Under the pieces are notes generated by a model that searched no databases, was not told the origin of the DNA, and worked only from the letters and a program-made list of their open reading frames with translations. From an uncultured Coriobacteriia bacterium (lineage in GTDB: Bacteria; Actinomycetota; Coriobacteriia; Anaerosomatales; PHET01), in the NCBI GenBank assembly GCA_942493275.1, contig OW818687.1, positions 1,519,522-1,583,521 of the forward strand: a stretch of 64,000 nt of DNA. Direction: 5' to 3'. This document shows, piece after piece, positions 1 through 60,247 of this stretch (positions within the stretch are counted from its first letter, which is position 1; each line of letters opens with the position of its first letter). The translations under genes were made by a program, and so were the position numbers.

Positions 1-1451
1 ACATTCTGTTCCCGTAGCGAGTCGTCAAGTTCGGACCACGGTCGCATGCTGCTGTCCGAACCCATCGAGTCGCTCTGGGCGAGTCGCGTCCGCAGGTACG
101 CTTGGTGCAGCGCCCGGGCGAGGCTCTCATCGGAACCGTGAAACACGAAGCGGGGTTCCTTGATGCCGTCGGTCCAGGAGAAGAAGCGCAGTCCTCGAGA
201 CATGCAAGCGCTGTAGGAGTTGTCGATGAGGGCGCCGAAGCCCCGGCTGTCGCTCAGGCACGCGACAACGGTGGAGGTCTCGGACAGGGGACCCGCGGCC
301 AATGCGAGGGCAGCCTTCACGGTCGTGGAGTCCTCGGGCGTGGTGACGAACGCGATGTCGAGCGCAGCCGAGGTCAGCCCGATATCCGCGAAGTCGAGGA
401 GCTGGACGCTGCGGTCGTCCTCGCCAGATTCGATCGCGCGCACGTCGATCAGCGAGTCAATCCCCCGGTAGATGCCGCTGGTGACCGACCACCACTGCTT
501 CGCGCCCGCCGCGATCAGCACCACGATGGGCCGCGGTGACCCGGGCGCACGCTCCAGCTGCGCTCGCTTGGCGAGGTGCACGAGCAGCGTCTCGGCGAGC
601 TGGTCGATTCCGAGCATCCCGATGCAGGCCTGGCCGCCTTCCTGCACGGACGCGAACGGGTCGAACTGGTTGAGCAGCGCGGCCGCCGTGCTCTCGAATG
701 AGCTGAAGAAGTCGACGTGCCCGGTCGACGTCCAGCCAGGCATCGTGACGGACTCGAGGTGCCTGCACAGGCCCAGATCGCTCACGTGCACAAAGCAGGA
801 CAGCCGCTCCGAGCCTTCAGCGGACTCGCCGATTGCGACGCGGGCGACCTCGGCGTTGAGCTCGTCACGACCACACACGGCGACGAGGCGCCGTGCCCTG
901 TCGACACCCGCGCGTTTGAGTACTTCGGGGTCGGTCGCGTCGCCGATCACCGCCGGTATCTTCGCCTGCGTCATGCCCTGCGAATCGCTCCGTGCCTCCG
1001 AGATGTCGATGGCGGCAACGGCTTCGCCTCGAGCCGCGAGCTCCAGGGCGATGGCGAGCCCCTGCTGTCCGAGTCCGCACACGACTGTGTGATCGCTCAT
1101 CGCCGCGATCTTCAGCTCGTTGAGACTCCTGCCCGCGAGTACCGCGTAGCCTTTCACCAGAGCGAGAACGGTGACCGCCGGCGCGAGGAAACGCGCAATT
1201 TGAAGCGCGAGAGGGATGTCACCTTCGACTGCGCCGTTGTTCAGGCCAAACAGCCCGAGGGTCAGGTAGAAGTAGCTGAGGACGGATTGGAGTGACCAAC
1301 GCTGCGCCTGCGGTACCAGGTGAGCGAAGCCGATCACGCCAAGCGCGAGCGCAATCAACGCGAAAGCGGCCGCCAGCGACCAGTCCGCATCGCGGACCTG
1401 GCTGAGCAGAAGTCTGAGCCGTCGAATCAGTGATTGAATCGTCCCTCGCAT
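1..1451 (-). CDS. 2TM pore-loop channel-like / TrkA-N (RCK) / RyR-domain membrane protein; 3' end lies beyond the left window edge
   Basis: Absent from the ORF track because it runs off the window. My reverse-strand translation from ATG 1451 (GAGGGGG 5 nt upstream) stays open to position 1: MRGTIQSLIRR... It has a TM helix WSLAAAFALIALALGVIGFAHLV, a pore-loop-like YFYLTLGLFGL and a second TM PLALQIARFLAPAVTVLALV. The Rossmann motif is VVCGLGQQGLAIALELAARGEAVAAIDIS. At the window edge, ARALHQAYLRTRLAQ...MRPWSELDDSLREQN looks like a RyR repeat. Confidence 0.7.
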   Translation of the reverse strand, partial: MRGTIQSLIRRLRLLLSQVRDADWSLAAAFALIALALGVIGFAHLVPQAQRWSLQSVLSYFYLTLGLFGLNNGAVEGDIPLALQIARFLAPAVTVLALVKGYAVLAGRSLNELKIAAMSDHTVVCGLGQQGLAIALELAARGEAVAAIDISEARSDSQGMTQAKIPAVIGDATDPEVLKRAGVDRARRLVAVCGRDELNAEVARVAIGESAEGSERLSCFVHVSDLGLCRHLESVTMPGWTSTGHVDFFSSFESTAAALLNQFDPFASVQEGGQACIGMLGIDQLAETLLVHLAKRAQLERAPGSPRPIVVLIAAGAKQWWSVTSGIYRGIDSLIDVRAIESGEDDRSVQLLDFADIGLTSAALDIAFVTTPEDSTTVKAALALAAGPLSETSTVVACLSDSRGFGALIDNSYSACMSRGLRFFSWTDGIKEPRFVFHGSDESLARALHQAYLRTRLAQSDSMGSDSSMRPWSELDDSLREQN

Positions 1452-1479
1452 GCATGCCCCCTCGCCGCCTGCGCTGCAG

Positions 1480-1509
1480 GTCAGTATAGTCGAGCAAGTC
1501 AGTATCGAG
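1480..1509. promoter_or_regulatory. Direct repeat GTCAGTAT(AGT)CGAG x2 plus a TATAGT -10-like box in the 68-bp divergent intergenic region
   Basis: GTCAGTATAGTCGAG at 1480..1494 and GTCAGTATCGAG at 1498..1509. This is the only non-coding DNA between the two divergent RyR genes. TATAGT lies at 1485..1490. Confidence 0.3.
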
Positions 1510-1519
1510 GGGGGTGCGC

Positions 1520-1996
1520 GTGAACGACGAAACGATAGACCGCCTTGCTCGGCGCGTCCATGAGGACTACGTGGCGCGTCAGCTCGAGCGTGGCGAGGCG
1601 ATGGGGGACCGTGTCGCCCTGCGCGGCTGGGAGGACCTGACCGAGGATGTGCGCGATGCCAATCGGGCTCAGGTGCGCGGCTATTCGCACACTCTCGCGG
1701 GCCTGGGGCTCACGATCGTAACGGCACACGGAGATGCCGGGATCGAGCGGTTCTCGGCCGAGGAGCTTGAGGCGCTCGCAGAGGGCGAACATCGCCGCTG
1801 GTCCGACGACCGCCTTGCCGCCGGCTGGACGTACGCGCCGGGAGACCCCTCGGACAAGCTCAAGACGACGCCGTGGCTGGTCGAGTACTCGGCGCTTCCC
1901 GAAGCCGAGAAGCAAAAGGACAGGGACGTGTTCCTCCGGCTGCCGCGGTTGCTTGCGGCGGTGGAGCTGGCGATCTCGCGAACGGGGACGGAATGA
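1520..1996 (+). CDS. Tandem RyR-domain protein
   Basis: ORF track gives 1514..1996. GAGGGGG (1507..1513) abuts GTG 1514, so GTG 1520 is the better-spaced start. Two RyR-type repeats are present: IDRLARRVHEDYVARQLERGE...WEDLTEDVRDANRAQV and LAEGEHRRWSDDRLAAGWTYAPGD...KTTPWLVEYSALPEAEKQKDRD. Confidence 0.8.
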   Translation: MNDETIDRLARRVHEDYVARQLERGEAMGDRVALRGWEDLTEDVRDANRAQVRGYSHTLAGLGLTIVTAHGDAGIERFSAEELEALAEGEHRRWSDDRLAAGWTYAPGDPSDKLKTTPWLVEYSALPEAEKQKDRDVFLRLPRLLAAVELAISRTGTE

Positions 1997-4900
1997 GTCG
2001 TGATGCCGCTATCGAGCGTGCTGTCCGCGTGTTCGTCTCGTCCACGTTTCGCGACATGGCTGCCGAACGCGAGCGGCTCGCGAGCCATGCCTGGCCGGCG
2101 CTGCGGACGCTGTGCGAATCCCGGGCGGTGACGTTCACCGACGTCGACCTGCGCTGGGGCATCACCCGCGAGCAGGCCGAGCGAGGCGACGTGCTCCCCA
2201 TCTGCCTGGCGGAGATCGACGCGTCTCGGCCGTACTTCATCGCGATTCTAGGCGAGCGCTACGGCTGGGTGCCCGATGAGATCCCCGAGCACCTCGTGAC
2301 TCAGATGTCGTGGCTGGAGGAGCAGCAAGGCAAGTCGGTCACGGAACTCGAGATTGCGTATGGGGTGCTCAACGACCCCAGCATGCACTCGCGCGCGTTC
2401 TTTTACTTCAGAGATGAGTCGGCCTCTCACGCTGCGGGCGCGGTCGAGACCGACCCTCGAGCGGTCGAGATGCTGGCGGCGCTCAAGGATCGAATCAGGC
2501 GCTGCCCCGGGGTGCGGCTGCGGGAGGGGTTCAGGACTGCTGAGGAGCTTGCGGTGCAGGTCGTGGACGACCTGCGGACTGACATCAATTTGGAGTTCCC
2601 GGCCGATACGACGCCCGATGCGACTAAGCGGGACCGTCTCGCGCACGCCGCATATGCCGGGGCGCGCTCGTATGCCTACATCGAGCGCCCCGAGGCGTAC
2701 GGCGCGCTGGACGAGTACCTCCGTGGCGGAGGGCAGCCCCTCGTTGTGACGGGTGATAGCGGCAGCGGCAAGAGTGCGCTGCTTGCCAACTGGGTGGCCC
2801 GTGTTCGAGGGACGCGGCCGGACGTTGCGGTGGTTGAGCACTACTGCGGAGCGGGCGCGGACGCCGCCGATTGGGCCGCCATGTGCCGGCGCATCGGCGG
2901 GGAACTCGAGGCCGCTACGGGAGTCGAACTCGAGCTGCCCTCGAACCGCTCCGCGTTGCTCCCCGCGTTCAGGGGAGCTCTCCATAGGATTCCGGCAGCG
3001 CACAAGGTAGTGATCGTCGTCGACGGCCTCAATCAGCTTGAGGACCGAGAAGCAGCGCCGGACTTGAGTTGGCTGCCCGACGAGCTTCCCGACAACATCC
3101 GGCTCGTCATCTCGACGCTCCCCGGCAGACCTCTCGCAGAGGCCCGGCGACGCGGGTGGGCGGAGTCTAAGGTGGGCCCACTGCAGCAGCCCGAGACCGC
3201 TGAGTTGATCCGGCGGTATCTGTCGTTGTACCGGCAGGGTCTCGACGAGGGCCTGGTACAGCGCATCGTTGCGACACCGCAGACCGCCAACCCGCTGTTC
3301 GTCCGAATATTGTTGGACGAGCTGCGCGTCGTCGGCAGCTTCGAGCGCCTCGGCGAGATCATTGATCGGTACCTGGAGGCATCCGGTCCGGCCGAGCTGT
3401 ATACGCGCGTGCTTGAGCGCTGGGAGCGCGACTACGAGAGCGTGAGGCCCGCGCTGGTTGCCGACCTTATGTCCGCGCTCTGGGCCGCACGCAGGGGTCT
3501 GTCGGAAACGGAGCTCCTCGCGCTTCTCGGAACCGGTGGGCTCCCGCTACCCCATGCGCACGCGTCTCCGCTGCTGCTTGCAGCCCACGGTTCGGTGGTC
3601 GCTCGATCGGGATACCTGGGATTCGGCCACGACTCGCTCCGACAGGCAGTCTCTCGCCGGTACCTGCCGGATCCCGAGTCCCAGAAGCGCGCGCATGCGT
3701 GGCTGGCATCGTGGTTCGAGCAGCAGGGCGGCCTGTCGGCCCGAAAGGTCGACGAGCTGCCGTGGCAGTGGATGCAGGCCGAGCGGTGGGATCGCCTCCA
3801 CGCGATGCTGAGCGATATCGGAACTCTCACCGCCATCGCCAAGGCGAACGACAACGACGTACAGACCTACTGGGCGGGTCTGGAGAGGCGGGGCTACCGG
3901 TCCTCGGATGCGTACGCCGATCTGGCACCGGGACCCGAGCTGGATGTGCCGCTGCGCGTGCTCCGGGGTCAGGGCCATCACGCGGCCGCGTTGCGTCTTG
4001 CTTCGCGGTGGCTCGACCATGCGCGCACCACCGGACGCGCCGTCGCGCCTCAGCTGCTCGTCGATACCGCGATTCTGAGCATGCACGCGGGAGAGACTGC
4101 GCAGTGCGATGGGCTGCTCAATGAGGCCGAGCGTCTCGCCGGTGCCGCAGGTGACCGCAGGGCACTAGCAACCGTTCATGGCACACGAGGCAATCTGCGC
4201 GAACGGGAGGGCCAGACGGGACTCGACGCTGCGCTCGAGGAGTATCAGACCGCCGAGCGGCTGCTCCGTGCCGAGGGGGCGATGCGCGGTGCCGCGGCAG
4301 CGATCAACAATCAAGCCTGGATAGTGTGGCGCCGCTACGATCCATCTGCGGCACTCCGCCTGTTCGGCGAGGCACGGGTGCTGTTCCGGGACTGTGGCGA
4401 TCTCCACGGCGTTGCACTCGCCGAGATGGGTATGGGTCGTGTCCAGGCGGTGACCATACGCGACTACGAGCGCGCCGATGCCCACTTTGCGAGCGCGGAG
4501 TCCCTGCTCCGCCGACTTGGTGATCGGCATGGTCTGCTCAAGGTCGCCGGGTTCATGAAGGACTCGATCGAGTTTCGTGGGGCGTCGGGTAGTGAGGCGC
4601 TTCCGCACCTGCGGGACTTCGCCGATCTGTGCCGGGAGCTGGACTTCGTCGAGGGGCTGGGCTCGGCGGTCGAGCAGATGCTGCCGCACGTGGCGGAGCC
4701 GGAGCGCGCTGAGCTCATCGCCCAGTGGGAGAGCGCGTGTCGTCGCCGTAAGCACGTCGCGGGCCTGCTCTCGGTGCTGCAACGCAAGGTCCGGATCGCG
4801 TTCGAGGCGCAGCGCGATGACGAGTGTGTCGGTCTTATCGGCGAGTGGGCGCAGCTCTCGGTCGACCCGTCGTTCTCGCGCGCTTCGATGGCGCCCTTCT

Positions 4901-6207
4901 CGTACGACGGCAGCGACCTGGATCTGAGGGGGCCGCGCGTGACCGGGACCTTCTCTCACGACGCGCTGAACCTCGGCGACTTGGCCGAGCCAGACCGGGC
5001 CGTGTGGCTCGGCGCGCACGTCGCCGGGATCTGCCTCAAGCATGGCGATCTTGACGGGTGGTCCGATGCGACGATGCGCATCGCCAGGACCGTGCCGGAG
5101 GAGCCAGACGCGGCCGCCATTCTCGCAGAGCATGAGCGGGAGTGCGAGGTGCGAGGTCATTGGTACGGGCTGATGGGATGCCTGTGCGCTCGCGCATTCG
5201 TCCTGTCGTCTCGGGGGCGCTTCGTGGAGGCTGATGAACTGCTGACTCGCGTAGAGAGGATCTGCGCCGATAACGGCGATGCGTCGGGTGCGACGTCTTT
5301 GGCTGAAAGGCGACTGGGGCTGCTGCGCGAGGCGGGCGAGTGGGAGCGAGTGCTTGACGGCACGGAGCAGCACGTGCGGCGCTGTCGCGAGGCGGGTGAG
5401 GCGGAGAAGCTCGCCTGGAGTCTCATGGACGTCGCGGATATCTGCGCGCGACGACTTGTGACGCCTCGGATAGAACGCTCTGTGGCCGCGTTGGAAGAGG
5501 CGCAGCAGTTGTGGGTCACGCTCGGCGAGCGTGACGAAGCGCGGACATGCCTTCACAAGCGAGCGTCTCACCTTGCGGAACTGGGTCGGCGTGAAGAGGC
5601 AATGGCGTTGCTCGGAGACGACGAAGCAGACTGCCGCCGGCGAGGTCTGCAGCGCGATCTGGCTGAGTGCCTGCTGGAAGAGGCGAAGATCTTGGGCGAG
5701 TCCGAGGGCCTGGAGCGCGTCAGCCCCTTGCTGGATGAGTACGATCGAATCGCACACCAGCAGGACGCATCGTACCGGCTGTTCAGCTCGATGGAGGTGC
5801 GGTCACAGATCGCCGAGCGCCGTGGTGACCCGGCTGCGGCCGCGCAACAGCTCGAGCTCATGGAGCGATGGTGCCGCGAGTCTGGAAACGTCGGGAATCT
5901 GCCGAAGGTCCACAAACTGAGGGCTGAGTTGGCTGAGCGGGAGGGGGACTGGCGGGGTCAGCTCGAGGCACTTCGGCGGCAGGAGGAGGCGTTCCGCGAA
6001 CGTCACGAGCATCCGGACGAGGAGCTGGTCGAGTGCCTTATCGCGCAAGTGAACGCGAGCGGGCGCCTGGGCATGGGCGATGAGGCGGCGCGGGTCGGGG
6101 GGATCGCGGCGATTGCCATCGACGGCTTGGGCTGGCCGGACCACGCACTCACGCGAATGCGCGCGTCCGTGGCGGCTGCGCTGGATGCGGCGACGCGCGA
6201 GGACTGA
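1993..6207 (+). CDS. DUF4062 (TIR-like) - NACHT-type STAND P-loop NTPase - TPR repeat protein (NLR-like)
   Basis: ORF track gives 1873..6207. I start it at ATG 1993 (MSRDAAIERAV), which overlaps the upstream stop as ATGA (1993..1996). VFVSSTFRDMAAERERL...YFIAILGERYGWVP is the DUF4062 signature. Walker A is VVTGDSGSGKSALL (2743..2784) and Walker B is VVIVVDGLNQLED. The C-terminal ~800 aa are TPR-like helical repeats. Confidence 0.85.
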   Translation: MSRDAAIERAVRVFVSSTFRDMAAERERLASHAWPALRTLCESRAVTFTDVDLRWGITREQAERGDVLPICLAEIDASRPYFIAILGERYGWVPDEIPEHLVTQMSWLEEQQGKSVTELEIAYGVLNDPSMHSRAFFYFRDESASHAAGAVETDPRAVEMLAALKDRIRRCPGVRLREGFRTAEELAVQVVDDLRTDINLEFPADTTPDATKRDRLAHAAYAGARSYAYIERPEAYGALDEYLRGGGQPLVVTGDSGSGKSALLANWVARVRGTRPDVAVVEHYCGAGADAADWAAMCRRIGGELEAATGVELELPSNRSALLPAFRGALHRIPAAHKVVIVVDGLNQLEDREAAPDLSWLPDELPDNIRLVISTLPGRPLAEARRRGWAESKVGPLQQPETAELIRRYLSLYRQGLDEGLVQRIVATPQTANPLFVRILLDELRVVGSFERLGEIIDRYLEASGPAELYTRVLERWERDYESVRPALVADLMSALWAARRGLSETELLALLGTGGLPLPHAHASPLLLAAHGSVVARSGYLGFGHDSLRQAVSRRYLPDPESQKRAHAWLASWFEQQGGLSARKVDELPWQWMQAERWDRLHAMLSDIGTLTAIAKANDNDVQTYWAGLERRGYRSSDAYADLAPGPELDVPLRVLRGQGHHAAALRLASRWLDHARTTGRAVAPQLLVDTAILSMHAGETAQCDGLLNEAERLAGAAGDRRALATVHGTRGNLREREGQTGLDAALEEYQTAERLLRAEGAMRGAAAAINNQAWIVWRRYDPSAALRLFGEARVLFRDCGDLHGVALAEMGMGRVQAVTIRDYERADAHFASAESLLRRLGDRHGLLKVAGFMKDSIEFRGASGSEALPHLRDFADLCRELDFVEGLGSAVEQMLPHVAEPERAELIAQWESACRRRKHVAGLLSVLQRKVRIAFEAQRDDECVGLIGEWAQLSVDPSFSRASMAPFSYDGSDLDLRGPRVTGTFSHDALNLGDLAEPDRAVWLGAHVAGICLKHGDLDGWSDATMRIARTVPEEPDAAAILAEHERECEVRGHWYGLMGCLCARAFVLSSRGRFVEADELLTRVERICADNGDASGATSLAERRLGLLREAGEWERVLDGTEQHVRRCREAGEAEKLAWSLMDVADICARRLVTPRIERSVAALEEAQQLWVTLGERDEARTCLHKRASHLAELGRREEAMALLGDDEADCRRRGLQRDLAECLLEEAKILGESEGLERVSPLLDEYDRIAHQQDASYRLFSSMEVRSQIAERRGDPAAAAQQLELMERWCRESGNVGNLPKVHKLRAELAEREGDWRGQLEALRRQEEAFRERHEHPDEELVECLIAQVNASGRLGMGDEAARVGGIAAIAIDGLGWPDHALTRMRASVAAALDAATRED

Positions 6208-6343
6208 GCGCAGGGCTCGCCAAACGGGGGTAGCCCTCTCCACCCCTCCAATGCGCTAGAGTAGGACCCGCACATCATCGGGCGGGGCCGAGGGTGCCCT
6301 TCTCGTCGTGCACGGGTTTTCACGCATCGAGAGGGGACATGCT

Positions 6344-9300
6344 ATGACGAGCCGGACACTCGGACGCATTCTTTCGCCGCTACTTGCGGTACTTCTACTC
6401 ACTTCGGGCGTGATGCCCGCATTCGCCGGAGACGCGCCGGCTGCCACTAATCCGCGTCCCACCGCGGTCAAGTTGGCGGTCGGCGACGGTCACACCGTCC
6501 AGATCAGGAGCGACGGGTCTCTGTGGGCCTGGGGCACCAACACCTACGGACGGCTCGGCTTGGGTGACTCCGCGACTCGCAGGCTCCCAACTCGGGTGGG
6601 GACCGATACGGACTGGGTCTCTGTGGCCGCCGGCGGTTCGGGGCAAACTCTTGCGCTCAAGAGCGACGGCACCCTGTGGGCCTGGGGCAGGAACTACAGC
6701 GGTCAGCTCGGCCTGGGCGACACTACGGATCGTTTCGTGCCCACGCAGGTCGGGACTCGCACGGACTGGGTGTCGGTCAGCACCGGCATGTACAACTCAT
6801 TCGGCATCAGGAGCGATGGCACGCTCTGGGCGTGGGGCTACAACCTCAAGGGCGAACTGGGCGACAACACCCAGACCCAGCGCACCAGTCCCGTGCAGGT
6901 ACCGGGCACCGGCTGGGTCTCAGTCGAGCCGGGCTTCTTCTACACGCTCGCGATTAAGAACGATGGCACGCTGTGGTCGTGGGGCCTGAACGACAGGGGC
7001 CAGCTCGGCCTGGACGACACCACGGACCGCCATTCGCCCACGCAGGTCGCGGGCACGGGCTGGAGCTCCATCGCCGCCGGTGACTACCACGGCCTCGGCG
7101 TGAAGACCGACGGCACCCTCTGGTCCTGGGGCGACAACAGCAACGGGCAGTTGGGCCTGAACGACAACGCTTCACGTCCGGTTCCCACGCAGGTGGCGGG
7201 CACCGGGTGGACCACGGTCGCGGCGGGCATGTATCACAGCCTCGCGCTCAAGTCCGACGGAACCTCATGGGCATTCGGTGACAACGGTTACGGGCAGCTG
7301 GGCGTCAACGACATGAACGATCGGCTGGTCCCGGCGCAGGTCACGACCACGGTCGACATGGTGGGCCTTGTGGCCGGTGCGCTTCATTCCGGCGCCGTTG
7401 CGAGCGACGGTTCGGTGTGGAAGTGGGGCTACAACCTCGGCACCGGCAATCTCGGCCTGGGCGACGTCGGAGGCCGGGTGTTGATTCCCATGCGGATAAC
7501 TCCCGCGGCCGACTGGACGCAGGTTGACGGCGGGTCGTTCCATACCGTCGGACTCAGGTCTGACGGCTCGCTGTGGTCATGGGGCAACGGCAACGGCCCG
7601 CTCGGTCATGGCGACAGCGTGATGCGGGTCGCTCCTGCGCGGATCGGCGGCGACACGTGGAAAGCCGTTTCGACCGGCAACGACCACACGGTGGCGGTCA
7701 AGGCCGATGGCACACTTTGGGCATGGGGCAGCAACTACTATGGTCAGTTCGGGAACGGAGCCTCAGGCCCCGCGGCCAGCAGCGCCTCGCCGGTGAAGAT
7801 CGGCACGGGGACGGACTGGGCTGCAGTGTCGGCGGGCAACGGTTTCACGCTTGCGCTCAAGAGCGACGGCACCATCTGGAGCGCCGGGCGCAACCGCAAC
7901 AGCGAGCTCGGGCTCGGGTTTTCGAGCGAGGATGAAGACCCGCAGTCGACGCTTGCACAGGTGGGCGCGGACACGGATTGGGTCCAGATCAGCGCCGGCA
8001 ACAACCACTCGATGGCGCGCAAAGCCGACGGAACGCTCTGGAACTGGGGCGCGAACTACTACGGTGAGGGCGGCCAGCCGAGCGTTGGCTCGAAGTACAA
8101 CGAGCCCACGCGGGTCGGAAGCGACTCGAACTGGAAGACGGTCTACGCCGGCGGGTATCACACGCTCGCCATCAAGACGGACGGCACGCTGTGGGCCTGG
8201 GGCTACAACTCCAACGGCCAGACCGGCAACGCCGGCGGCGGGACGGTCGCTCAGGTGGGAACTGACTCGGACTGGGCGTCGGTCGCCGCGGGCGACATGT
8301 TCTCAGTGGCGTCCAAGACCGATGGAACAGCCTACGGCTGGGGCTTCAACGCCGCCGGCATGGTGGGAGACGGGTCTGGCACCGACAGAAGCGCACCGAG
8401 CCTGATCGCCGATCACGATGACTTCAGCCAGGTGTTCGCGGGCATGCAGTTCGCGTTTGGCACCAAGGCGGACGGCTCGCTATGGGGCTGGGGCGACAAC
8501 GGCGTCGGCCAGCTCGGCGACAGCACTCAGGTAACGCGGCTCTCACCGGTCTTCGCGGCGCACGGACGTGCCCAGGGCACAGGCGGCGTCACGCCGGTCG
8601 TCTCGGCGGGGGCGTCACACACGCTCGCGGTCAGGGGCGACGGCTCGCTGTGGGCCTGGGGCGCCAACGACTACGGCAAGCTCGGCGTGGGCGACAAGGC
8701 GGTTCGCACGACGCCGACCCGCGTCGGCACCGATAACGACTGGCGCGCGGTCGCGACGGGACTCAACTTCTCGCTCGCGCTCAAGAGCGACGGCACGCTG
8801 TGGGCTTGGGGCCTGAACGACCAGGGACAGGCAGGTCTCGGCGGGACGTACGAAGCGCTGACTCCCACGCAGGTCGGGAGCGACTCGGACTGGGTGACCA
8901 TCTCGGCGGGCAACGGGCACACGCTTGCGGTCAAGAGCAATGGCACGCTGTGGGCCTGGGGCAACGGAGGCATGGGTCGCCTCGGCCGAGGAAGCACGGA
9001 GGACAGTAACGTGCCGGTGCAGGCGGGGACCGATACCGACTGGAAGACCGTATCGGCCGGCGGCGTGCACTCGCTCGCGATCAAGGACAACGGCACCCTG
9101 TGGTCGGCCGGCTACAACGTGTTCGGCCAGCTTGGCCTGGGTGATGTCGATGACAGGTTTGTCTTCACGCAGGTGGGTTCGGCGACGGACTGGTGCAGCG
9201 CGAGCACGGGCGTGTTCCACTCTGCGGCCATAAACACCGCCGGCGAGCTGTGGGTGTGGGGCGCCAACGATTCCGGGCAGCTTGGCTTGGATGACAAGAT

Positions 9301-11194
9301 CATGCGGCTGAGCCCCAACCCGCTGGGAACGGGCACGACGTGGACTTCGGTCGTGATGAGCTACTACCACACGCTCGGCACGCAGTGCGACGGCACGCTG
9401 TGGGCATGGGGCAGCGGCTCGAGCGGCCAGCTCGGTCTGGGCGCCGCGAGTGAGGCCCTGGCGCCCACGCAGGTACCCGATGACGTCGACTGGACCTCCG
9501 TGTCGGCGGGCTACTCGCACGCCGTGGCCATCAAGAGCGACGGCTCGCTGTGGTCGTGGGGCCGCAACGATGCCGGCGAGCTCGGGACCGGCGGCGAGGC
9601 GCTCGACGTGCGTAACCCGGAGCTCGCGTGGGCGCCTGGTGACACGGTGACGCCGATGCAGCCGGTGGTGCGCTCGACCACGCATCCGTTCGTCGCGCCG
9701 GTGGGTTCGGCGGACTTCGACGCAGCGCTGTTCGCGCTCGACAGCGAGTCAGACGTACGCGGCTTCTCCTGGACAATCGACCAGGCCGCAGACACCGAGC
9801 CGGACGACACGCTGGAGTCGGACGGCGCGGATGCGACCGTCTCGGAGAGTATGGCGAGCGGCACCTGGTACCTGCACGTGCGCGCGCAGGACCTCGGTTA
9901 CAACTGGAGCGAAACCACGCACTTCGCGTTCGTGGTCAACGCCGCACCGCAGGCGGTCGACGACGAGTTCACCTCCGATGAGGACGTCGTGCTCGAGGTG
10001 GATGCCGCCAACGGTGTGCTCGCCAACGACACCGACGCCGATGACGACGATCTGACGGTGAGCCTCGTCGACGACGTGGCCCACGGCACGCTCGATCTGT
10101 CATCGGACGGCTCGTTCACCTACACGCCCGACGCGAACTGGTTTGGCGAGGACACGTTCACCTACAAGGCAAACGACGGCACGGCCGACTCGGCTGCAGC
10201 CCTCGTGACCATCACGGTCAACGACGTCAATGATCTGCCGCCGGTTATCGCGGTAGAGGGCAAGAGCCGTTTCGCGACTGCGGTCAGGGCCTCCGAGGAG
10301 GCATACCCCGACGGGCTCGATGCCGTGGGAGACAAGACGGTGGTTATCGCGACCGGCATGAACTGGCCCGACGCGCTGGGCGGCTCGAGCCTCGCCGGCG
10401 CGCTCGACGGTCCGATCCTGCTGGTGGAGACGAACAGCGTTCCGACCTCGGTGACCGCTGAAATCACCCGCCTCGGCGCCGATAAGGCCGTCATCCTGGG
10501 CGGTACCGCAGCAGTCGGCGCCGGCGTCGAGACCGCGCTCAAGACCCAGCTCGGTGCTGGCGACGTCAGGCGCATCTCGGGATCGAACCGCTACGCGACC
10601 GCCGATGCGATTGCCGAGGAGGTCATCGCGCTTGCAGGACCGGGCTACGACGGCACGGCCTTCGTTGCGACGGGAGCGAAGTTCCCTGACGCCTTGGGCG
10701 CAGCTCCGCTGGCCGCCGCCAACGCATGGCCGCTCTTCCTGGCCGATCCCGTGACGGGTCTCTCGGCAGGCACCAAGGCGGCGATGACCGGCGTGGATGA
10801 GGTTCTGGTCCTCGGCGGGACCGCCGTGGTCTCGACTGGCGTGGAGACGTACCTGAACACGGAGTACGGCGACGCGAACGTCGAGCGTATCAGTGGCGCC
10901 AGCCGCTACGAGACCGCGGCGAAGATCGCCGACTGGGGCGTGGCCAACGCGGGTCTCGGCTGGAACCGCGTCGCGATCGCGACGGGAACCAACTTCCCGG
11001 ATGCGCTCGCCGGTGGGGTGCTCCAGGGACAGGTGGGCAGCGTCATGCTGCTGACGACGCCGGACAAGCTCGACGCGTATCCGGCCGCAGCGCTGACCGC
11101 GAACAAGGCCGAGATCACCACGGTCACGTTCTTTGGTGGCACCGGTGCGCTGCCGCAGGTGGTGCGCGACCAGGTGGGTGCTGCACTGCAGTAG
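6344..11194 (+). CDS. Secreted surface protein: 21 RCC1 blades + cadherin/Big-like domain + 3 cell-wall-binding-2 (CWB2) repeats
   Basis: ATG 6344 follows GAGGGG, so the track start 6308 is rejected. Signal peptide is MTSRTLGRILSPLLAVLLLTSGVMPAFA. There are 21 consecutive DG[TS]LW[AS]WG.N..GQLGLGD units. The cadherin-like segment reads AVDDEFTSDEDVVLEV..GVLANDTDADDD..FTYTPDANWFGEDTFTY..VNDLP. Three CWB2 units follow (SRFATA/NRYATA/SRYETA...NWPDALGG...PILL) from about 10259. Confidence 0.9.
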   Translation: MTSRTLGRILSPLLAVLLLTSGVMPAFAGDAPAATNPRPTAVKLAVGDGHTVQIRSDGSLWAWGTNTYGRLGLGDSATRRLPTRVGTDTDWVSVAAGGSGQTLALKSDGTLWAWGRNYSGQLGLGDTTDRFVPTQVGTRTDWVSVSTGMYNSFGIRSDGTLWAWGYNLKGELGDNTQTQRTSPVQVPGTGWVSVEPGFFYTLAIKNDGTLWSWGLNDRGQLGLDDTTDRHSPTQVAGTGWSSIAAGDYHGLGVKTDGTLWSWGDNSNGQLGLNDNASRPVPTQVAGTGWTTVAAGMYHSLALKSDGTSWAFGDNGYGQLGVNDMNDRLVPAQVTTTVDMVGLVAGALHSGAVASDGSVWKWGYNLGTGNLGLGDVGGRVLIPMRITPAADWTQVDGGSFHTVGLRSDGSLWSWGNGNGPLGHGDSVMRVAPARIGGDTWKAVSTGNDHTVAVKADGTLWAWGSNYYGQFGNGASGPAASSASPVKIGTGTDWAAVSAGNGFTLALKSDGTIWSAGRNRNSELGLGFSSEDEDPQSTLAQVGADTDWVQISAGNNHSMARKADGTLWNWGANYYGEGGQPSVGSKYNEPTRVGSDSNWKTVYAGGYHTLAIKTDGTLWAWGYNSNGQTGNAGGGTVAQVGTDSDWASVAAGDMFSVASKTDGTAYGWGFNAAGMVGDGSGTDRSAPSLIADHDDFSQVFAGMQFAFGTKADGSLWGWGDNGVGQLGDSTQVTRLSPVFAAHGRAQGTGGVTPVVSAGASHTLAVRGDGSLWAWGANDYGKLGVGDKAVRTTPTRVGTDNDWRAVATGLNFSLALKSDGTLWAWGLNDQGQAGLGGTYEALTPTQVGSDSDWVTISAGNGHTLAVKSNGTLWAWGNGGMGRLGRGSTEDSNVPVQAGTDTDWKTVSAGGVHSLAIKDNGTLWSAGYNVFGQLGLGDVDDRFVFTQVGSATDWCSASTGVFHSAAINTAGELWVWGANDSGQLGLDDKIMRLSPNPLGTGTTWTSVVMSYYHTLGTQCDGTLWAWGSGSSGQLGLGAASEALAPTQVPDDVDWTSVSAGYSHAVAIKSDGSLWSWGRNDAGELGTGGEALDVRNPELAWAPGDTVTPMQPVVRSTTHPFVAPVGSADFDAALFALDSESDVRGFSWTIDQAADTEPDDTLESDGADATVSESMASGTWYLHVRAQDLGYNWSETTHFAFVVNAAPQAVDDEFTSDEDVVLEVDAANGVLANDTDADDDDLTVSLVDDVAHGTLDLSSDGSFTYTPDANWFGEDTFTYKANDGTADSAAALVTITVNDVNDLPPVIAVEGKSRFATAVRASEEAYPDGLDAVGDKTVVIATGMNWPDALGGSSLAGALDGPILLVETNSVPTSVTAEITRLGADKAVILGGTAAVGAGVETALKTQLGAGDVRRISGSNRYATADAIAEEVIALAGPGYDGTAFVATGAKFPDALGAAPLAAANAWPLFLADPVTGLSAGTKAAMTGVDEVLVLGGTAVVSTGVETYLNTEYGDANVERISGASRYETAAKIADWGVANAGLGWNRVAIATGTNFPDALAGGVLQGQVGSVMLLTTPDKLDAYPAAALTANKAEITTVTFFGGTGALPQVVRDQVGAALQ
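6464..9620 (+). repeat. Array of 21 RCC1-type beta-propeller blade repeats (coding, ~150-165 bp period)
   Basis: I counted 21 W.WG/..G.LG.. blade signatures by eye in the translation, from SLWAWGTNTYGRLGLGD to SLWSWGRNDAGELGTG. Confidence 0.8.
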
Positions 11195-11247: not shown

Positions 11248-11412
11248 GTATATCCAGAGGGCAATGTGCGACAATGACACTCACATTTCGCGCGGCGGTA
11301 GCCGGATCTGCCGAGTGCCCCCGCGATATGGCTTTCCCCACGCTTACCAGCGTCCTTTTCGCGCCTCCGGCGCGCGCTGGTCGTGAAGTGACCTACGAAG
11401 GGATCGGTGGTC

Positions 11413-13728
11413 ATGAGTCAGATCCACGCACTCCGTTCTGCATACTCAACGTATTCCTCGCAAGCCCGCCGCGGTGGTCTCAGCCTTGTGCTGGCTTCCG
11501 CTCTGCTTATCCAGGGCATGATCGGTTTTGGGCAGCTGGCCGCACCGGCCGCTGCGTTCGCGGCGGGTCGCACCGTCAACGTCGCCACCGCCGCCGAGCT
11601 CATCTCGGCCGTGCGTGACCTGCAGGACGGCGACACCGTCGTCCTCGCAGCGGGCACCTACGACGTCGAGCGCCAGCTGGGCGACATGAACATGGGTGGC
11701 CAGACGGGCTGGTACTTCCCGATCTGGAAGAATGACGTCACCGTCCGCGGAGCCGGCGTCGGCCAGACGACTCTCACGAGTTCGGTCGACTCGCCCAACG
11801 GCGCGTGGGCTTCTCAGGACTTCATCTCGGTGTGGGCCAACGGTGTCACGATCGAGGGCATGACCGTCGTGTCCAAGAACCAGACCAACAAAGCCATCGA
11901 GATCATGGGCAAGGACTGCACCCTGCGCGGCCTGGAGTTCCTCACCAACCCGCTGCAGTCCGATGCCGGTGAGTTCTACGAGTTCAGCGGTTCCGTCTAC
12001 TTCAATCCCATGGCTTCCGTGACCGGCGCTGCCGGTGACGTGGGCGCTTCTCGGATGGAGGACGTGTTCATCGAATCGGCGTGGGTTTCGGCGCCGCTCG
12101 CTGTCGTCACCACCGGAACCATCGACCTCAGCGGGGTCACCCTCGACTGGGTCGAGGGCGGCTACGCGCCGTACAACGGCTACGGCATGATGAGCTCCAA
12201 CCCGTGCTTCCGCGTCGAGCAGGACGTGACGTTCGTGGTGGATAACACGATGTACAGCATCGCCACGCAGGCGAGCGCACGTCTGCCCATCGGCGCTGCG
12301 CTGCAGTATGAGGGCCCCGTCGGCCCCTCCGACGAGGTCACCTCCAGCGTATTCACGAGCCTCAAGCGCGGCGGCTCCTACCCCGCGTCCGGCACGGTCG
12401 GTTTCGCCTACGGTGATCCGATGCGGTACGCGTGGACCTTCCCGATCGGCACGCTGGATCCGTCGTTCGACGCCACGTTCTTCCCCGGCATCGCCGTGCG
12501 CACGACTCTCGACACCGCGGTGGGCGACATGTTCGCCTCCGCCGAGCTGCCCGCGTCCGGGCACGACGTAGTCGAGGTGTCGCTGGCTCACGAGGGCGCG
12601 CTTCCCGGACTCGCGCAGCTTGAGCTGCTCACCGATCCGGAGCTCGCAGGCAAGACGTTTGAGCTGTTCACCTTCGGTCCCGAGGTCGGTGGCGGCCCGC
12701 TCGCATCCGCAGGCCAGACCGTCATCGTGGATGAGGACGGCTACGTCACCATCGACGTGGACACGGGCGATGTGTGGTACCTCGTCGAGGTTCCGGCCGA
12801 GGTCGCCTTCATCCGCCACGCCGGGGCGAACCGCTACGACACGGCTATCAAGGCCGCCGAGGAGGCGTTCCCCGAGGGCGCTGACGCGGCCATCCTCGCG
12901 TGCGCCAAGGACTTCCCAGATGCCATTGCGGCCTCCACGCTCGCCGGCGTCATCGATGGGCCGATCCTGCTCACCGATACGGCCGTGCTGACCCCGCAGA
13001 CTGCCGCGGAGTTGAACGCGCTGGGCGTCGAGACCGTCTACATCGCCGGTGGCCCGAATGCCGTGTCGAACGCGATCCAGAGTGATCTCGACGACACCTA
13101 CGACGTGGTCCGCCTCGCTGGCCGCAGCCGCTACGAGACCGCCAAGGCAATCGCCGATGAGGCGGTCCGTCTGGGCGCGAGCGACACCGAGGCATTCCTG
13201 GTTCGCGGTGACGACTTCGCAGATGCCCTTGCCGTCGCTTCGATCGCCACTCAGCGTCAGGTGCCGGTTCTGCTCACCTTCTCCGGCGCGCTTGCCCCCA
13301 GTGCCGCAAGCTTCATCGAGTCCAACTCCGTTGGCGACGTCTACGTCGCCGGTGGCACCAACGCCGTGTCGAACGCGACCGCGAACTCGGTCACCTCGCT
13401 CGGCTCAGCGGTGACTCGTTGGTCGGGCGGCAACCGCTACGCGACGGCCGCCACGGTCGTCGGCGAAGCTGTTGCCCTGTGGGACATGGACGTCACCCAC
13501 ATCGGCCTGTCGTCGGGTGCGAACTTCCCCGACGCCGTCGCCGGTGGTGCCGCCATGGGCGCCAAGTCGGGCTTCCTGCTGCTGACCGATCCCAAGGCGC
13601 TTTCGCCGGAGGCCGAGACGCTGATCTCGGGTAACACGGCCACCATCGTTCAGGTCGAGTTCTTCGGCGGCGTGAACGCGCTGGCTGCCGATGTCTCCGA
13701 TGCTGTGATGGACCTGTTCGCCGAGTAG
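11413..13728 (+). CDS. Secreted right-handed beta-helix (pectate-lyase-fold-like) protein with 3 CWB2 repeats
   Basis: The N-terminal hydrophobic signal region ends in AAFAAGRT. TVNVATAAELISAVRDLQDGDTVVLAAGTYDV is typical of beta-helix proteins. The C-terminal half carries three CWB2 units (ANRYDTAIKAAE..FPDAIAAS..PILLTD; SRYETAKAIAD; NRYATAATVV). The start could be GTG 11407 or ATG 11413. Confidence 0.8.
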   Translation: MSQIHALRSAYSTYSSQARRGGLSLVLASALLIQGMIGFGQLAAPAAAFAAGRTVNVATAAELISAVRDLQDGDTVVLAAGTYDVERQLGDMNMGGQTGWYFPIWKNDVTVRGAGVGQTTLTSSVDSPNGAWASQDFISVWANGVTIEGMTVVSKNQTNKAIEIMGKDCTLRGLEFLTNPLQSDAGEFYEFSGSVYFNPMASVTGAAGDVGASRMEDVFIESAWVSAPLAVVTTGTIDLSGVTLDWVEGGYAPYNGYGMMSSNPCFRVEQDVTFVVDNTMYSIATQASARLPIGAALQYEGPVGPSDEVTSSVFTSLKRGGSYPASGTVGFAYGDPMRYAWTFPIGTLDPSFDATFFPGIAVRTTLDTAVGDMFASAELPASGHDVVEVSLAHEGALPGLAQLELLTDPELAGKTFELFTFGPEVGGGPLASAGQTVIVDEDGYVTIDVDTGDVWYLVEVPAEVAFIRHAGANRYDTAIKAAEEAFPEGADAAILACAKDFPDAIAASTLAGVIDGPILLTDTAVLTPQTAAELNALGVETVYIAGGPNAVSNAIQSDLDDTYDVVRLAGRSRYETAKAIADEAVRLGASDTEAFLVRGDDFADALAVASIATQRQVPVLLTFSGALAPSAASFIESNSVGDVYVAGGTNAVSNATANSVTSLGSAVTRWSGGNRYATAATVVGEAVALWDMDVTHIGLSSGANFPDAVAGGAAMGAKSGFLLLTDPKALSPEAETLISGNTATIVQVEFFGGVNALAADVSDAVMDLFAE

Positions 13729-13865: not shown

Positions 13866-14141
13866 ATGAAGGTCAAGACGCGCAAGGTTGGCAACAGCCT
13901 GACCGTAACGATCCCCAAAGAGCTGGTCAGCGAGATGGACCTCTCGGAGGACACCGACATGAACATCTTCGTGCGCGAGGGCACGGTCGTCCTCGAGCCG
14001 GTGGTATCTCGCTGGGACCGGCTCGTGGCTCGTGTTCGTGATCAGGCAGCCGAGCGCGGGCTGACCGAGGCAGACGTCCGCGCAGAGGTCAGCGCGTTGC
14101 GCGACAGGCTCTCCGACGCTGACGGCGACTGCGTCGAGTGA
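13866..14141 (+). CDS. AbrB/MazE/SpoVT-family antitoxin
   Basis: MKVKTRKVGNSLTVTIPKELVSEMDL matches the swapped-hairpin AbrB motif. GGGAG lies 6 nt upstream of ATG 13866, so the track start 13785 is rejected. The stop overlaps the toxin start. Confidence 0.8.
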   Translation: MKVKTRKVGNSLTVTIPKELVSEMDLSEDTDMNIFVREGTVVLEPVVSRWDRLVARVRDQAAERGLTEADVRAEVSALRDRLSDADGDCVE

Positions 14142-14542
14142 TTCAGCCACGGATTCTCATCGACACCAATGTGCTGATCTCCGCCATCATCTTCGGGGGC
14201 GCGCCTGGAGAGCTGCTGGATGCTGCACGCGCAGGCCGCGTCCACGGGGTGGTCTCGCTCCACATTCTCGGCGAGTTCCGAGATGTGCTGACGCGACCGC
14301 GCTTCGGATTCGATGCTGCCACTGTCGACTCCCTGATCGAGGAGATTGCAGCGCTCTGCGAAGTGGTTCCCGTTGAACATGCCGTGCGCAGCTGGACGGT
14401 TGACCCCAAGGACGATCCCGTCGTCGAGGCCGCGATGGCGGCGCGTGTCCAGATGGTGGTTACAGGCGACCAGCACCTGCTCAACTTGAGTCTCGCTGCG
14501 TTTCAGACACTCTCGCCGGCGGAGGCGCTTGCCAGGCTCTAG
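14138..14542 (+). CDS. PIN-domain toxin (PIN_3-like)
   Basis: ILIDTNVLISAII...PKDDPVVEAAMAARVQMVVTGDQHLL carries the PIN acidic residues. GTG 14138 overlaps the antitoxin stop as GTGA. Confidence 0.85.
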   Translation: MIQPRILIDTNVLISAIIFGGAPGELLDAARAGRVHGVVSLHILGEFRDVLTRPRFGFDAATVDSLIEEIAALCEVVPVEHAVRSWTVDPKDDPVVEAAMAARVQMVVTGDQHLLNLSLAAFQTLSPAEALARL

Positions 14543-15459
14543 CGCCCCCGCGCCCCGACCCCCGCAGCCGCCTCCAGCACCAGCAGCGCCGCCAGCCGTA
14601 CGGTCCGCCCGTCGGGCGCGTCGATCGCCGCGTCGATCTCGGTGAAGTCGAGCGCCGCCACCCGCGGGTCCTCGGCGAGGCAGCCCACCAGCACCCGCAG
14701 CTCGTCGGCTGAGATCCCGCCGGGGGCCGCAGAGGGGCAGCCCGGCACCTCGGCGCGGTCGCACACGTCGACGTCAACGTCGACGAACACGCGGCGTCCG
14801 CCCGCACCGGCGACGTCGAGCGCCTCTGCGCACACCGAGCGCAGATCGGCTCCGCGCAGCGCCGATCGCGCCACCACCGTGATGCCGGCCTCGCGTGCGC
14901 GAGCCGCATAAGCGGCCGAGTTCGAGAAGTCCGCGATCCCTATCTGCACGACGTTGCCGCCGGGCAGCCCCGCCTCGAGCAGGCGGCGCACCGGCGAGCC
15001 GTTCGAGACCCCATCGCGCAGGTCGTGGTGCGCGTCGATCGTGATGAGCCCCCAGTCCTCGAGCCCGCCCTCGGCCAGCCCGCGCATGACGCTGTAGGTG
15101 AGCGAGTTGTCGCCGCCGATCGCCAGCAGGACCCGCGAGCGCCGCCCCGCCTCGGCGACCGCCGCCTGCGCCCGGTCCTCGCCGTCGGCGCCGTCCGGCT
15201 CGGCCACGTCACCGAAGTCGAACGCGAGCAGCTCGGCGACGTCGAACCCGCGGCTGGCCGAGTAAGTCGAGTAGAAGCGCAGCGCGTCTCGCACCGCACC
15301 CGGGGTCGCGTGCGCACCGGTCGGCGTGATGGAGGTGCGGTGAGTCGGTACGCCCAGCACTCCGATGTCGGCGATGCGCTCATCGGCAGGCTCGGCCGGA
15401 AGCAGCCAGTGCGCGGCACGCGGCCACAGCGGATCGGCGGGGAGCGGGTTGCTCGGCAT
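14539..15459 (-). CDS. hutG: Formimidoylglutamase (arginase-fold)
   Basis: Arginase-family motifs are GGDNSLTY, ITIDAHHDLRD and VDVDVDVCD. The gene is divergent from hutHUI. ATG 15459 is preceded by GAGGAG, so the track start 15516 is rejected. Confidence 0.75.
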   Translation of the reverse strand: MPSNPLPADPLWPRAAHWLLPAEPADERIADIGVLGVPTHRTSITPTGAHATPGAVRDALRFYSTYSASRGFDVAELLAFDFGDVAEPDGADGEDRAQAAVAEAGRRSRVLLAIGGDNSLTYSVMRGLAEGGLEDWGLITIDAHHDLRDGVSNGSPVRRLLEAGLPGGNVVQIGIADFSNSAAYAARAREAGITVVARSALRGADLRSVCAEALDVAGAGGRRVFVDVDVDVCDRAEVPGCPSAAPGGISADELRVLVGCLAEDPRVAALDFTEIDAAIDAPDGRTVRLAALLVLEAAAGVGARGR

Positions 15460-15630
15460 GGGACTCCTCAGGTTCGGCTGCTTGGCGGGGCACACCATCT
15501 CGCTGGAGTGGTGCACTGCAAACCCGCGCGTCTACACTCGCGGAGTTGTCCGCAAGGGGGACATACCCAAGAGTATTCGCGATTTCGGCGCGACGCCAAT
15601 CCGCCGAGGTCCATCCACGAGGAAGTGCCG

Positions 15631-60177: not shown

Positions 60178-60247
60178 CGCGCCGCATTCGCCCACATGTC
60201 GCACCCCTCAGCTACACTGCCCCAAGTCGACTGACGAGAGGGCCCGC

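Follow-up and report, generated by a model that had tools for sequence, protein, structure and literature searches.

RyR-domain genes linked to an NLR-type candidate NADase: possible host receptors for NAD-derived signals in bacteria

The three-gene locus reported here (genes A, B and C) lies at the start of a 64,000-nucleotide stretch of DNA, referred to as the window, from an uncultured Coriobacteriia bacterium (GenBank assembly GCA_942493275.1, contig OW818687.1, positions 1,519,522 to 1,583,521), and its closest described relatives come from recent work on defence and counter-defence. First, Avs and NLR-like defence proteins that contain DUF4062, also termed NIR, include PsAvs2 (Le Mouellic et al., 2026; doi 10.64898/2026.09.04.749371), to which the DUF4062 systems Swarozyc, Evangelion, Vulcan and Vesta are related. 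According to 2026 preprints, DUF4062 has a TIR-like fold with a catalytic Glu that is needed for defence, hydrolyses NAD+ to ADP-ribose (ADPR) and nicotinamide, is used by Avs and NLR-like defence proteins, and serves human TEP1, too, as its enzymatic head; taken as a class, NIR genes show enrichment beside defence genes, and all of the members tested protect against phage (2026 preprint). Second, the phage RyR protein RyDEP cleaves the ribose-ribose bond of two isomers of cyclic ADP-ribose (cADPR), 2'cADPR as well as 3'cADPR, with linear ADPR held in a pocket that includes His75, Trp78, His100 and Asp117, and further phage RyR homologues, RyR Tad among them, act on cADPR isomers and cADPR as sponges of nanomolar affinity (2026 preprint). 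An initial annotation of our locus had treated RyR domains as lacking an assigned function, a statement outdated by these phage proteins, which bind or cleave 2'cADPR and 3'cADPR, and it had called the NLR half undescribed, which has been superseded since DUF4062 NLR-like NADases were already described in 2026. Its framing in terms of NLRs and abortive infection fits the published DUF4062 findings.

In the locus of the window, a DUF4062-NACHT protein (gene C) is encoded in an operon with a small protein made of RyR repeats (gene B), next to a divergent gene for a membrane protein with an RyR end (gene A). The domain identities, the operon structure and the linkage between RyR and TIR-family genes in other genomes are observed. 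We give slightly better than even chances to the reading that the locus is an NLR-type NADase coupled to RyR receptors for its NAD-derived product, and we consider that genes A, B and C probably form a conflict or defence system. Gene C is of a kind already known; the apparent novelty is the partnership of host RyR domains with TIR-family enzymes, of which we found no description: a full-text literature search, itself incomplete, returned no account of a host RyR partnership with NLR or TIR proteins, and only two papers on phage RyR proteins.

The linkage was approached from both sides. In the forward direction, genomes were scanned with RyR-pair sequences as the sole seed (a four-sequence alignment), and the 48 loci obtained span Actinomycetota, Pseudomonadota, Verrucomicrobiota, Chloroflexota, Bacteroidota, Acidobacteriota, Bacillota and one archaeon. 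Most RyR modules in these loci form the C-terminus of a protein like that of gene A, with transmembrane (TM) helices followed by TrkA_N, as identified with custom hidden Markov models (HMMs). A TIR or DUF4062 open reading frame (ORF) lies within 3 kb in 22 of the 48 loci, and 19 of the 34 such ORFs begin no more than 500 bp from the RyR gene, where their density is 3.9 per 10 kb against 0.1-0.3 per 10 kb farther out. The TIR ORFs adjacent to RyR genes all carry Pfam TIR_2 (28 of 28), and one Glu is invariant across them. Applied as a control to 57 kb of unrelated window sequence, the same HMMs gave zero matches. In the reciprocal direction, with relatives of gene C of the DUF4062-NACHT type as the sole seed, metagenomes yielded 80 loci at 32-50% identity, of which 27 have an RyR pair in an ORF within 8 kb, 7 a TM-TrkA module and 16 a TIR domain. 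In these NLR loci the RyR gene mostly shares the strand of the NLR gene and immediately precedes it, the same B-then-C order as in the window; where at least 1.5 kb of sequence precedes the NLR gene, an RyR gene ends within 600 bp upstream in 8 of 70 cases. In locus L069, for instance, only 17 nt separate the RyR stop from the NLR start, with a Shine-Dalgarno sequence in between.

Of 1.84 billion cluster representatives, only 13,094 match the RyR-pair profile, and we therefore estimate the chance expectation of RyR-NLR adjacency at about 1e-4 per locus. The adjacency of RyR and NLR genes is far beyond chance, and it is very likely that these genes are functionally linked. An early impression that the arrangement was not conserved, gained from a word-index search and from the closest relatives of gene C, was overturned by the profile-based sampling of loci. 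The word-index search with gene B had returned only three relatives, the nearest of which, P0123, seemed unlinked to any NLR; the later profile-based locus search revealed a TIR gene about 3 kb from P0123, and the closest relative of gene B in the profile-based loci (L010) is 47% identical to it.

Gene fusions and complete cassettes were also found. In locus L123 (metagenome OFEK01001802.1, 4467-8462), a single ORF of 1332 aa reads DUF4062-AAA_16/NACHT-TPR_MalT-RyR, with the RyR domain at aa 1256-1326 (7e-19), and its neighbour is a convergent TM-TrkA_N-RyR gene (8453-10453); protein P0127 is a TIR_2-TM-TrkA_N-RyR fusion. The Bacteroidales locus L043 encodes, all in one direction and flanked by housekeeping genes, a TM-TrkA_N-RyR protein, an X-RyR protein, a 96-aa RyR protein, a DUF4062-STAND protein and a DUF4062-NACHT-WD40 protein, an arrangement of which L044 (Tannerella) and L045 (Chloroflexia) are variations. 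The three-gene module that had been proposed is thus borne out as conserved, both by RyR and DUF4062-NACHT neighbours in 27 of the 80 loci and by the cassette in Bacteroidales, Tannerella and Chloroflexia. Elsewhere, ordinary TIR genes take part: in L010 and L039 the pair of genes A and B is kept next to them (the TIR protein of L010 has 265 aa), and in sister loci such as L010, L011 and L029 an ordinary TIR gene is paired with a TM-TrkA_N-RyR gene. In L039, TIR-SIR2 and CHASE2-TIR genes (2021-3613 and 13910-15547) flank a divergent TM-TrkA-RyR/small-RyR pair that has precisely the arrangement of the window's genes A and B. The cassette is compact, with three genes, and smaller two-gene versions occur in L069, L102 and L010.

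The company that RyR keeps points to the nature of the domain itself. In the 75 representatives that resemble gene B most closely, the partner of RyR is TrkA_N in 29, an adenylate/guanylate cyclase in 7, AAA+ in 3, and RelA_SpoT, SpoIIE, a sigma-54 activator or NACHT in single cases. Likewise, 16 large RyR proteins encoded beside relatives of gene C include RelA_SpoT of a toxSAS-type fold (7), prokaryotic TRPM-type SLOG/LSDAT (4), cyclase (2) and NUDIX (1); proteins of this sort occur in L063, L087, L094, L096, L132, L134, L082 and others, and these large NLR-linked proteins could together make up an effector family, toxSAS-like or nucleotide-handling, that is gated by RyR. The positions that bind the ligand or take part in catalysis are conserved across 110 distinct bacterial RyR modules (His 93%, Trp 78% with a further 14% Tyr or Phe, Lys/Arg 91%, His 60% and Asp 78%). 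A single small domain combined with many outputs is the pattern of the SAVED, CARF, SLOG and Macro sensors of CBASS, type III CRISPR and Thoeris. Since one constant small domain is joined to many alternative output modules, RyR would by analogy behave as a ligand-sensor module. Fusions of adenylate/guanylate cyclase with RyR were seen in L018, L019, L031 and L034 (Verrucomicrobiota/Bryobacteraceae); in L018 a TIR gene stands immediately before the cyclase-RyR gene, a placement that hints at cross-talk between NAD-derived and cyclic-nucleotide signalling.

Gene C, which has more than 4000 homologues, was confirmed by Pfam and by comparison with 80 homologues to be what had been annotated, namely a protein of 1404 aa with a DUF4062 N-terminus, Walker A and B motifs and a NACHT domain (27.8 bits against a cut-off of 26.7). 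The Walker A motif GDSGSGKS (aa 254-261, nt 2752-2775) and the Walker B motif VVIVVDGLNQLED (aa 339-351, nt 3007-3045) are conserved in the 80 homologues at G254, G257, G259, K260 and D344 and in the pattern hhhhDGLNQLED. Pfam TIR and TIR_2 gave no match on gene C. In its DUF4062 domain, the motif S115-x-T117-E118-L-E120 is conserved at 100% for E120 and T117 and at 95% for E118 in the same homologues, and E120 (nt 2350-2352) is the candidate catalytic Glu; compared by position alone, its distance from the N-terminus is similar to that of PsAvs2 E108, Vulcan E98 and VstA E103. The TPR-like repeats initially described hold by homology, as the last 765 aa or so align by BLASTP in multiple registers to the TPR_12 region of P0008 (3e-30, 4e-28), and not by Pfam, which finds no TPR on gene C at E<=0.01. 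We presume these C-terminal repeats to be the sensor region. Two loci with the closest homologues of gene C, L004 (6823-10008) and L005 (5207-9832), show a further arrangement, in which the end of a preceding TIR_2-AAA_16-NPHP3_N-TPR STAND gene overlaps the start of the DUF4062-NLR gene; this overlap, and further TIR genes nearby, suggest paired NLRs.

Gene B is identical to the database protein P0121. Pfam detects RyR only in its second half (2e-16), and the whole AlphaFold2 (AF2) model (predicted local distance difference test score, pLDDT, 88.5) is superposed by Foldseek on the complete Repeat12 domain of human RyR3, with a TM-score of 0.77; therefore gene B holds two repeats, as had been proposed. 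The matching structures of RyR3 Repeat12 were crystallised with ADP, AMP-PCP and ATP, and a sequence search of the PDB returned Repeat12 of RyR1-3 and entry 3NRT. No relative was found in a scan of viral contigs with the RyR alignment, and a phage-genome search gave only weak matches, at 31% identity to Arthrobacter phage proteins and at 39-41% over partial lengths in two uncultured phage records.

Gene A starts with the ATG at 1451 on the minus strand and runs off the start of the window, so that 483 aa are visible; the full-length protein, P0125, has 602 aa and is 100% identical. Its AF2 model (mean pLDDT 73.6, only about 50 over the first 100 residues) has helices at 24-45, 54-72 and 81-105; behind these come two domains of the Rossmann/RCK type and, at the C-terminus, a pair of helices. 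Pfam places TrkA_N at aa 123-206 (8.6e-16). Foldseek matched this model in the PDB to the tandem-RCK gating ring of TrkA (1.5e-9), to GsuK, including NAD- and ADP-bound forms (1e-6), to MthK (5e-4), and also to CASTOR and a Bacteroides thetaiotaomicron RyR chimera. As the N-terminus is positively charged and the RCK and RyR domains must be cytoplasmic, the topology of the membrane region appears to be two TM helices with a re-entrant helix. The layout initially described for gene A, with a TM helix, a pore-loop-like helix that is not of the K+ type, a second TM helix, TrkA_N and an RyR end, was recovered, the RyR part being weak and cut by the window. Its likeness to MthK stands in so far as an RCK follows two TM helices, according to TrkA_N and Foldseek, and fails in that the K+ filter and Ion_trans_2 are missing: Pfam Ion_trans_2 gave no match on gene A, and the signature [TS][VIL]G[YF]G is absent from all 40 distinct family members, gene A having TLGLFGL and the family a common motif LYLSLQLFxLxSG. 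The identity of a K+ channel was rejected, since no selectivity filter is found in gene A or in the 40 members. Conduction of ions by gene A is possible, with a probability that we place somewhat short of even. The first RCK domain keeps GLGQQG and the acidic D149, and C125, G126, G128 and D171 are invariant in the family; because the GxGxxG motif and the acidic residue are retained, it looks able to bind a dinucleotide. In the homologues P0126-P0130 the RyR domain is clear, and the alignment shows no variation in EHxRW and GW.

Table 1. Features of the locus, with positions in the window.
Feature	Position	Strand	Description and basis
Gene A	1..1451	-	483 codons visible, last 119 beyond window start; translation, Pfam, AF2 and Foldseek
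Gene A, first RyR repeat (start only)	3..131	-	Custom RyR-pair HMM, 5.4e-12; remainder outside window
Gene A, TrkA_N/RCK1 Rossmann domain	834..1085	-	aa 123-206; Pfam
Gene A, membrane region	1137..1382	-	aa 24-105: TM1, hydrophobic helix SLQSVLSYFYLTLGLFGL, TM2; AF2 helices
Divergent intergenic region	1452..1519	.	68 bp; direct repeat and mirrored Shine-Dalgarno
Gene B	1520..1996	+	158-aa soluble protein; Pfam RyR, PDB sequence matches, AF2, Foldseek
Gene C	1993..6207	+	1404-aa STAND/NLR-like protein, DUF4062(NIR)-NACHT-helical repeats; Pfam
Gene C, DUF4062/NIR TIR-like domain	2026..2358	+	aa 12-122; Pfam PF13271, 6.3e-13, 49 bits against cut-off 24.7
Gene C, NACHT/AAA_16 NTPase core	2704..3225	+	aa 238-411; Pfam AAA_16 1e-9, NACHT 2.5e-6
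Gene C, degenerate TPR-like helical repeats	3910..6204	+	About 765 aa; BLASTP against P0008

Genes A (minus strand), B and C (both plus strand) lie at the coordinates first assigned to them, around the 68-bp divergent spacer, and the ATGA at 1993-1996, in which the stop of gene B overlaps the start of gene C, was likewise verified (Table 1). The spacer contains a 12-nt direct repeat, GCA(G/A)GTCAGTAT, at 1476-1487 and 1494-1505, with a spacing of 18 nt, which could be an operator, and genes A and B have identical mirror-image Shine-Dalgarno sequences, CGAGGGGG, at 1457-1464 and 1506-1513. A scan of 1300-6500, spacer included, for sigma-70 promoters and terminators gave no match.

In the mechanism that we propose, gene C would be both sensor and enzyme: its helical-repeat C-terminus would recognise a trigger, most probably a phage protein, the NACHT NTPase would drive oligomerisation, and the oligomer would activate the NIR domains to cleave NAD+, with ADPR or a related nucleotide as product. 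The RyR domains of genes A and B would be the receptors of this NAD-derived nucleotide. Gene A, in which a putative RyR receptor and a tandem RCK ring that may bind a dinucleotide are tied to a small membrane domain, would act as a second, membrane-directed effector, by ion leak or depolarisation. Gene B, as a bare RyR protein made in a fixed ratio with the NLR, would buffer or degrade the ligand and so serve as a threshold-setter or off-switch, a role resembling that of the ring nucleases of type III CRISPR and of MisB in Metis. The NADase activity of DUF4062 and the binding or cleavage of cADPR and ADPR by RyR were shown by others on homologues only, and would carry over to this locus by analogy. 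That the product of gene C is the RyR ligand, in which direction the signal runs, what genes A and B do and that the function is anti-phage is what we infer from this arrangement.

Several observations weigh against this reading. First, with regard to the individual proteins, published NIR proteins kill by NAD+ depletion alone and require no partner; Repeat12 of RyR3 binds ATP and ADP, so that RyR could have an ordinary adenine nucleotide as its ligand; gene B contains H91, W94, K115 and D134, with Thr117 in the place where a phosphate-contacting His is usual; the RyR domain of P0125 is divergent, scoring 22 bits in Pfam at aa 519-568 against a cut-off of 27.4; and the model of gene A has low confidence in the membrane part (pLDDT about 50), which contains no K+ filter. 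Second, with regard to linkage, two thirds of the sampled relatives of gene C have no nearby RyR gene, a TIR-family neighbour is missing from the available sequence for about half of the TM-TrkA-RyR genes, what precedes gene C's three closest relatives (50-58% identity) is a TIR_2-AAA_16-NPHP3_N STAND gene or small ORFs and not RyR, and the fusion in L123 fits equally an RyR domain that acts upstream of the NLR or in feedback on it. Third, with regard to genomic context, the GC and the third-codon-position GC (GC3) of genes A-C are the same as those of their neighbours, indicating a native composition; the neighbours are mostly housekeeping genes (Hut genes, AFOR, chemotaxis, CWB2 cell-wall proteins), and the window holds no recognisable defence island and no mobile-element genes around the locus. 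Furthermore, PADLOC gave no match on genes A, B and C at E<=0.01, with PADLOC-DB v2 of 2023, which predates the NIR and RyR work. The idea of a defence locus is weakened by the lack of an island, the silence of PADLOC and the housekeeping neighbours.

Four other explanations were weighed. The one that survives best, although we consider it unlikely, is that the RyR proteins are only safety devices: the NLR would kill by NAD+ depletion, and genes A and B would sequester or hydrolyse stray product, against autoimmunity or for reset. Published NIR systems, being single genes that act by NAD+ depletion, agree with it, as do the phage RyR proteins, which are sponges or glycosidases, the His/Asp dyad positions that gene B keeps, the bare RyR ORFs beside NLRs in L069, L078, L086, L106, L131 and L140, and the precedents of Metis MisB and Vesta VstB as accessory product-handling enzymes. 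However, RyR is fused to toxic or output modules (toxSAS-type RelA_SpoT, cyclases, AAA+ and membrane RCK), which suit an effector better than a buffer, and a stoichiometric sponge would be unable to buffer the millimolar ADPR of an active NADase.

Somewhat less probable still is a signalling system outside immunity, in which the sensing of NAD/ADPR or of adenylates would control dormancy, development or programmed death with no anti-phage role. The housekeeping context (Hut, AFOR, chemotaxis, cell wall), the native composition and the lack of nearby defence or mobile genes would be expected of such a system, the host is said to have many STAND proteins, and RyR further occurs in fusions with a sigma-54 activator, SpoIIE and cyclases, with RyR3 Repeat12 binding both ATP and ADP. 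Against this, the NIR class is enriched beside defence genes and its tested members are all anti-phage, the TIR partners of RyR genes keep their catalytic Glu, and sister loci contain TIR-SIR2 and tandem NLR arrays.

We regard as very unlikely the wiring put forward in the initial annotation, in which gene B is a protein adaptor that bridges the NLR and the channel through RyR-RyR contacts, in the manner of Death or CARD domains and with no small-molecule ligand. RyDEP and RyR Tad do dimerise through helices alpha1 and alpha4, the single-repeat RyR proteins of 96 aa (L043, L044) must pair with another repeat, and genes A and B have paralogous RyR pairs; yet gene B is already a closed two-repeat pseudo-dimer, the residues of the ligand pocket are conserved across the bacterial RyR family, and in most loci the NLR has no RyR domain that could be a docking site. 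Conservation of the ligand residues, and the many unrelated output domains to which RyR is fused, make a nucleotide-binding role for RyR, as sensor or regulator, more likely than this wiring. Finally, that the genes are chance neighbours, or that gene B is a captured RyDEP-like prophage counter-defence gene, is hardly credible: the only RyR proteins characterised in prokaryotic biology are indeed phage anti-Thoeris factors, but the window has no phage genes, gene B is translationally coupled to the NLR by the ATGA, the viral-contig scan found no relative and the phage-genome matches are weak, and chance neighbourhood is effectively refuted by synteny, given gene fusion and an adjacency that recurs in independent loci, 27 of 80 in one set and 22 of 48 in the other.

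Returning to the reading of an NLR-type NADase coupled to RyR receptors, the recurrence of the pairing across distant phyla suggests that RyR domains serve the host as receptors for NAD-derived signals and are more than a means of phage counter-defence. In a broader form, which we advance tentatively and hold to be less than evenly probable, the RyR Repeat12 domain would be a widespread host receptor for the NAD-derived nucleotides (of ADPR or cADPR type) of TIR-family enzymes, NLR NADases would also emit a messenger to RyR-gated effectors, free RyR proteins would be buffers or off-switches, the phage proteins RyDEP and RyR Tad would be stolen copies of this host domain, and Repeat12 of animal ryanodine receptors would be a relic of such ligand sensing. 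The RyR-gated effectors of this proposal are the membrane RCK protein, toxSAS-type RelA_SpoT, cyclases and AAA+ ATPases. If true, it would add a large class to NAD-based bacterial immunity (13,094 RyR-pair cluster representatives), with RyR as a new receptor domain and a new set of effectors; NLR-type NADases would signal as well as deplete NAD+; the source of the phage RyR anti-Thoeris sponges and glycosidases would be explained; and a testable hypothesis would become available for the unexplained Repeat12 of RyR and for the debated action of cADPR and ADPR on animal ryanodine receptors.

As for the remainder of the window, PADLOC was run on 30 of its ORFs and gave no defence match near the locus. 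A 643-aa RecQ-like helicase at 60125-62053 (plus strand) matched DpdF (2.6e-264) and PsyrT (5e-100) over its full length; it is separated from the locus by 54 kb and probably belongs to the housekeeping genes as a RecQ; a HEAT-repeat protein at 22114-24471 (minus strand) matched HEAT-ARM_XIII (4e-21), and one of the 30 scanned ORFs matched E1-E2 models (2e-26). No phage genes were found in the window, and horizontal transfer, as judged by composition, was ruled out, the GC and GC3 of genes A-C matching those of neighbouring genes. Giant secreted proteins with RCC1 repeats, cadherin/Big_9 and CWB2 repeats are encoded at 6308-11194, 11407-13728 and 44481-52607. Four CWB2 proteins occur in the window; these and AFOR point to a Gram-positive-type, high-GC anaerobe with an S-layer-like surface.

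When compared with described systems, gene C is most like the NIR-containing Avs and NLR-like proteins, with which it shares an N-terminal DUF4062, a STAND NTPase in the centre and repeats at the C-terminus, the invariant Glu of its DUF4062 motif being a candidate for their catalytic one, and by analogy with which trigger-induced oligomerisation followed by NAD+ hydrolysis to ADPR would be expected of it. Those systems, however, are single proteins or combinations of NIR with a phosphatase, none with an RyR partner, and although gene C is a NIR-containing NLR-like protein, no Avs or bNACHT model of PADLOC 2023 matches it. With Thoeris (types I-XI) the locus has in common the logic of a TIR-family NAD+ enzyme together with a nucleotide-binding domain on a toxic or membrane module, the nearest types being those with membrane effectors, namely II (TM-Macro), V, VI, VII and X (the 'ion channel' ThsK). 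The difference is that the enzyme here is a DUF4062 inside a 1404-aa NLR and not a small ThsB; gene C is not a canonical TIR-domain ThsB, DUF4062 being a TIR-like family separate from TIR. RyR and TrkA are not named in the accessible portions of the text and supplements of the Thoeris survey. Type X, with its ion channel effector, could be related to the locus of gene A; all matches examined in a plasmid search with the published type X TIR were type II (Macro) loci. In Table S2 of the same survey, the effector of type VIII is given as 'CMP hydrolase and TPR', and the 'CMP hydrolase' of PsAvs2 is DUF4062; because the latter turned out to be DUF4062, this domain may also act downstream of TIR signals.

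On the side of the RyR proteins, the locus shares with RyDEP and RyR Tad the Repeat12-type fold and the pocket residues HxxW, K and D; these phage proteins bind ADPR-type nucleotides. RyDEP and RyR Tad are phage counter-defence proteins, whereas genes A and B are chromosomal, gene B being operonic with the putative NADase and gene A fused to membrane and RCK parts; likewise, gene B is a fused two-repeat domain with Thr117, in contrast to the homodimers with a phosphate-contacting His. Gene B thus agrees with RyDEP and RyR Tad in fold and pocket, and its locus is not a phage-encoded anti-defence locus. Gene A resembles GsuK, MthK, Kch and TrkA in having two TM helices followed by TrkA_N/RCK, the RCK being in tandem, like that of GsuK and of TrkA; binding of NAD+ and ADP by GsuK is seen in its crystal forms. 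It differs from these RCK channels in that its family has no TVGYG-type filter and no Ion_trans_2, and in its additional C-terminal RyR pair. Lastly, a functional analogy may be drawn with the animal TRPM2 and RyR channels, on whose cytosolic domains ADPR- and cADPR-type nucleotides act: their pores are not homologous to gene A and their biology differs, but SLOG and NUDIX, the ligand modules of TRPM2, are fused to RyR in NLR-linked bacterial proteins.

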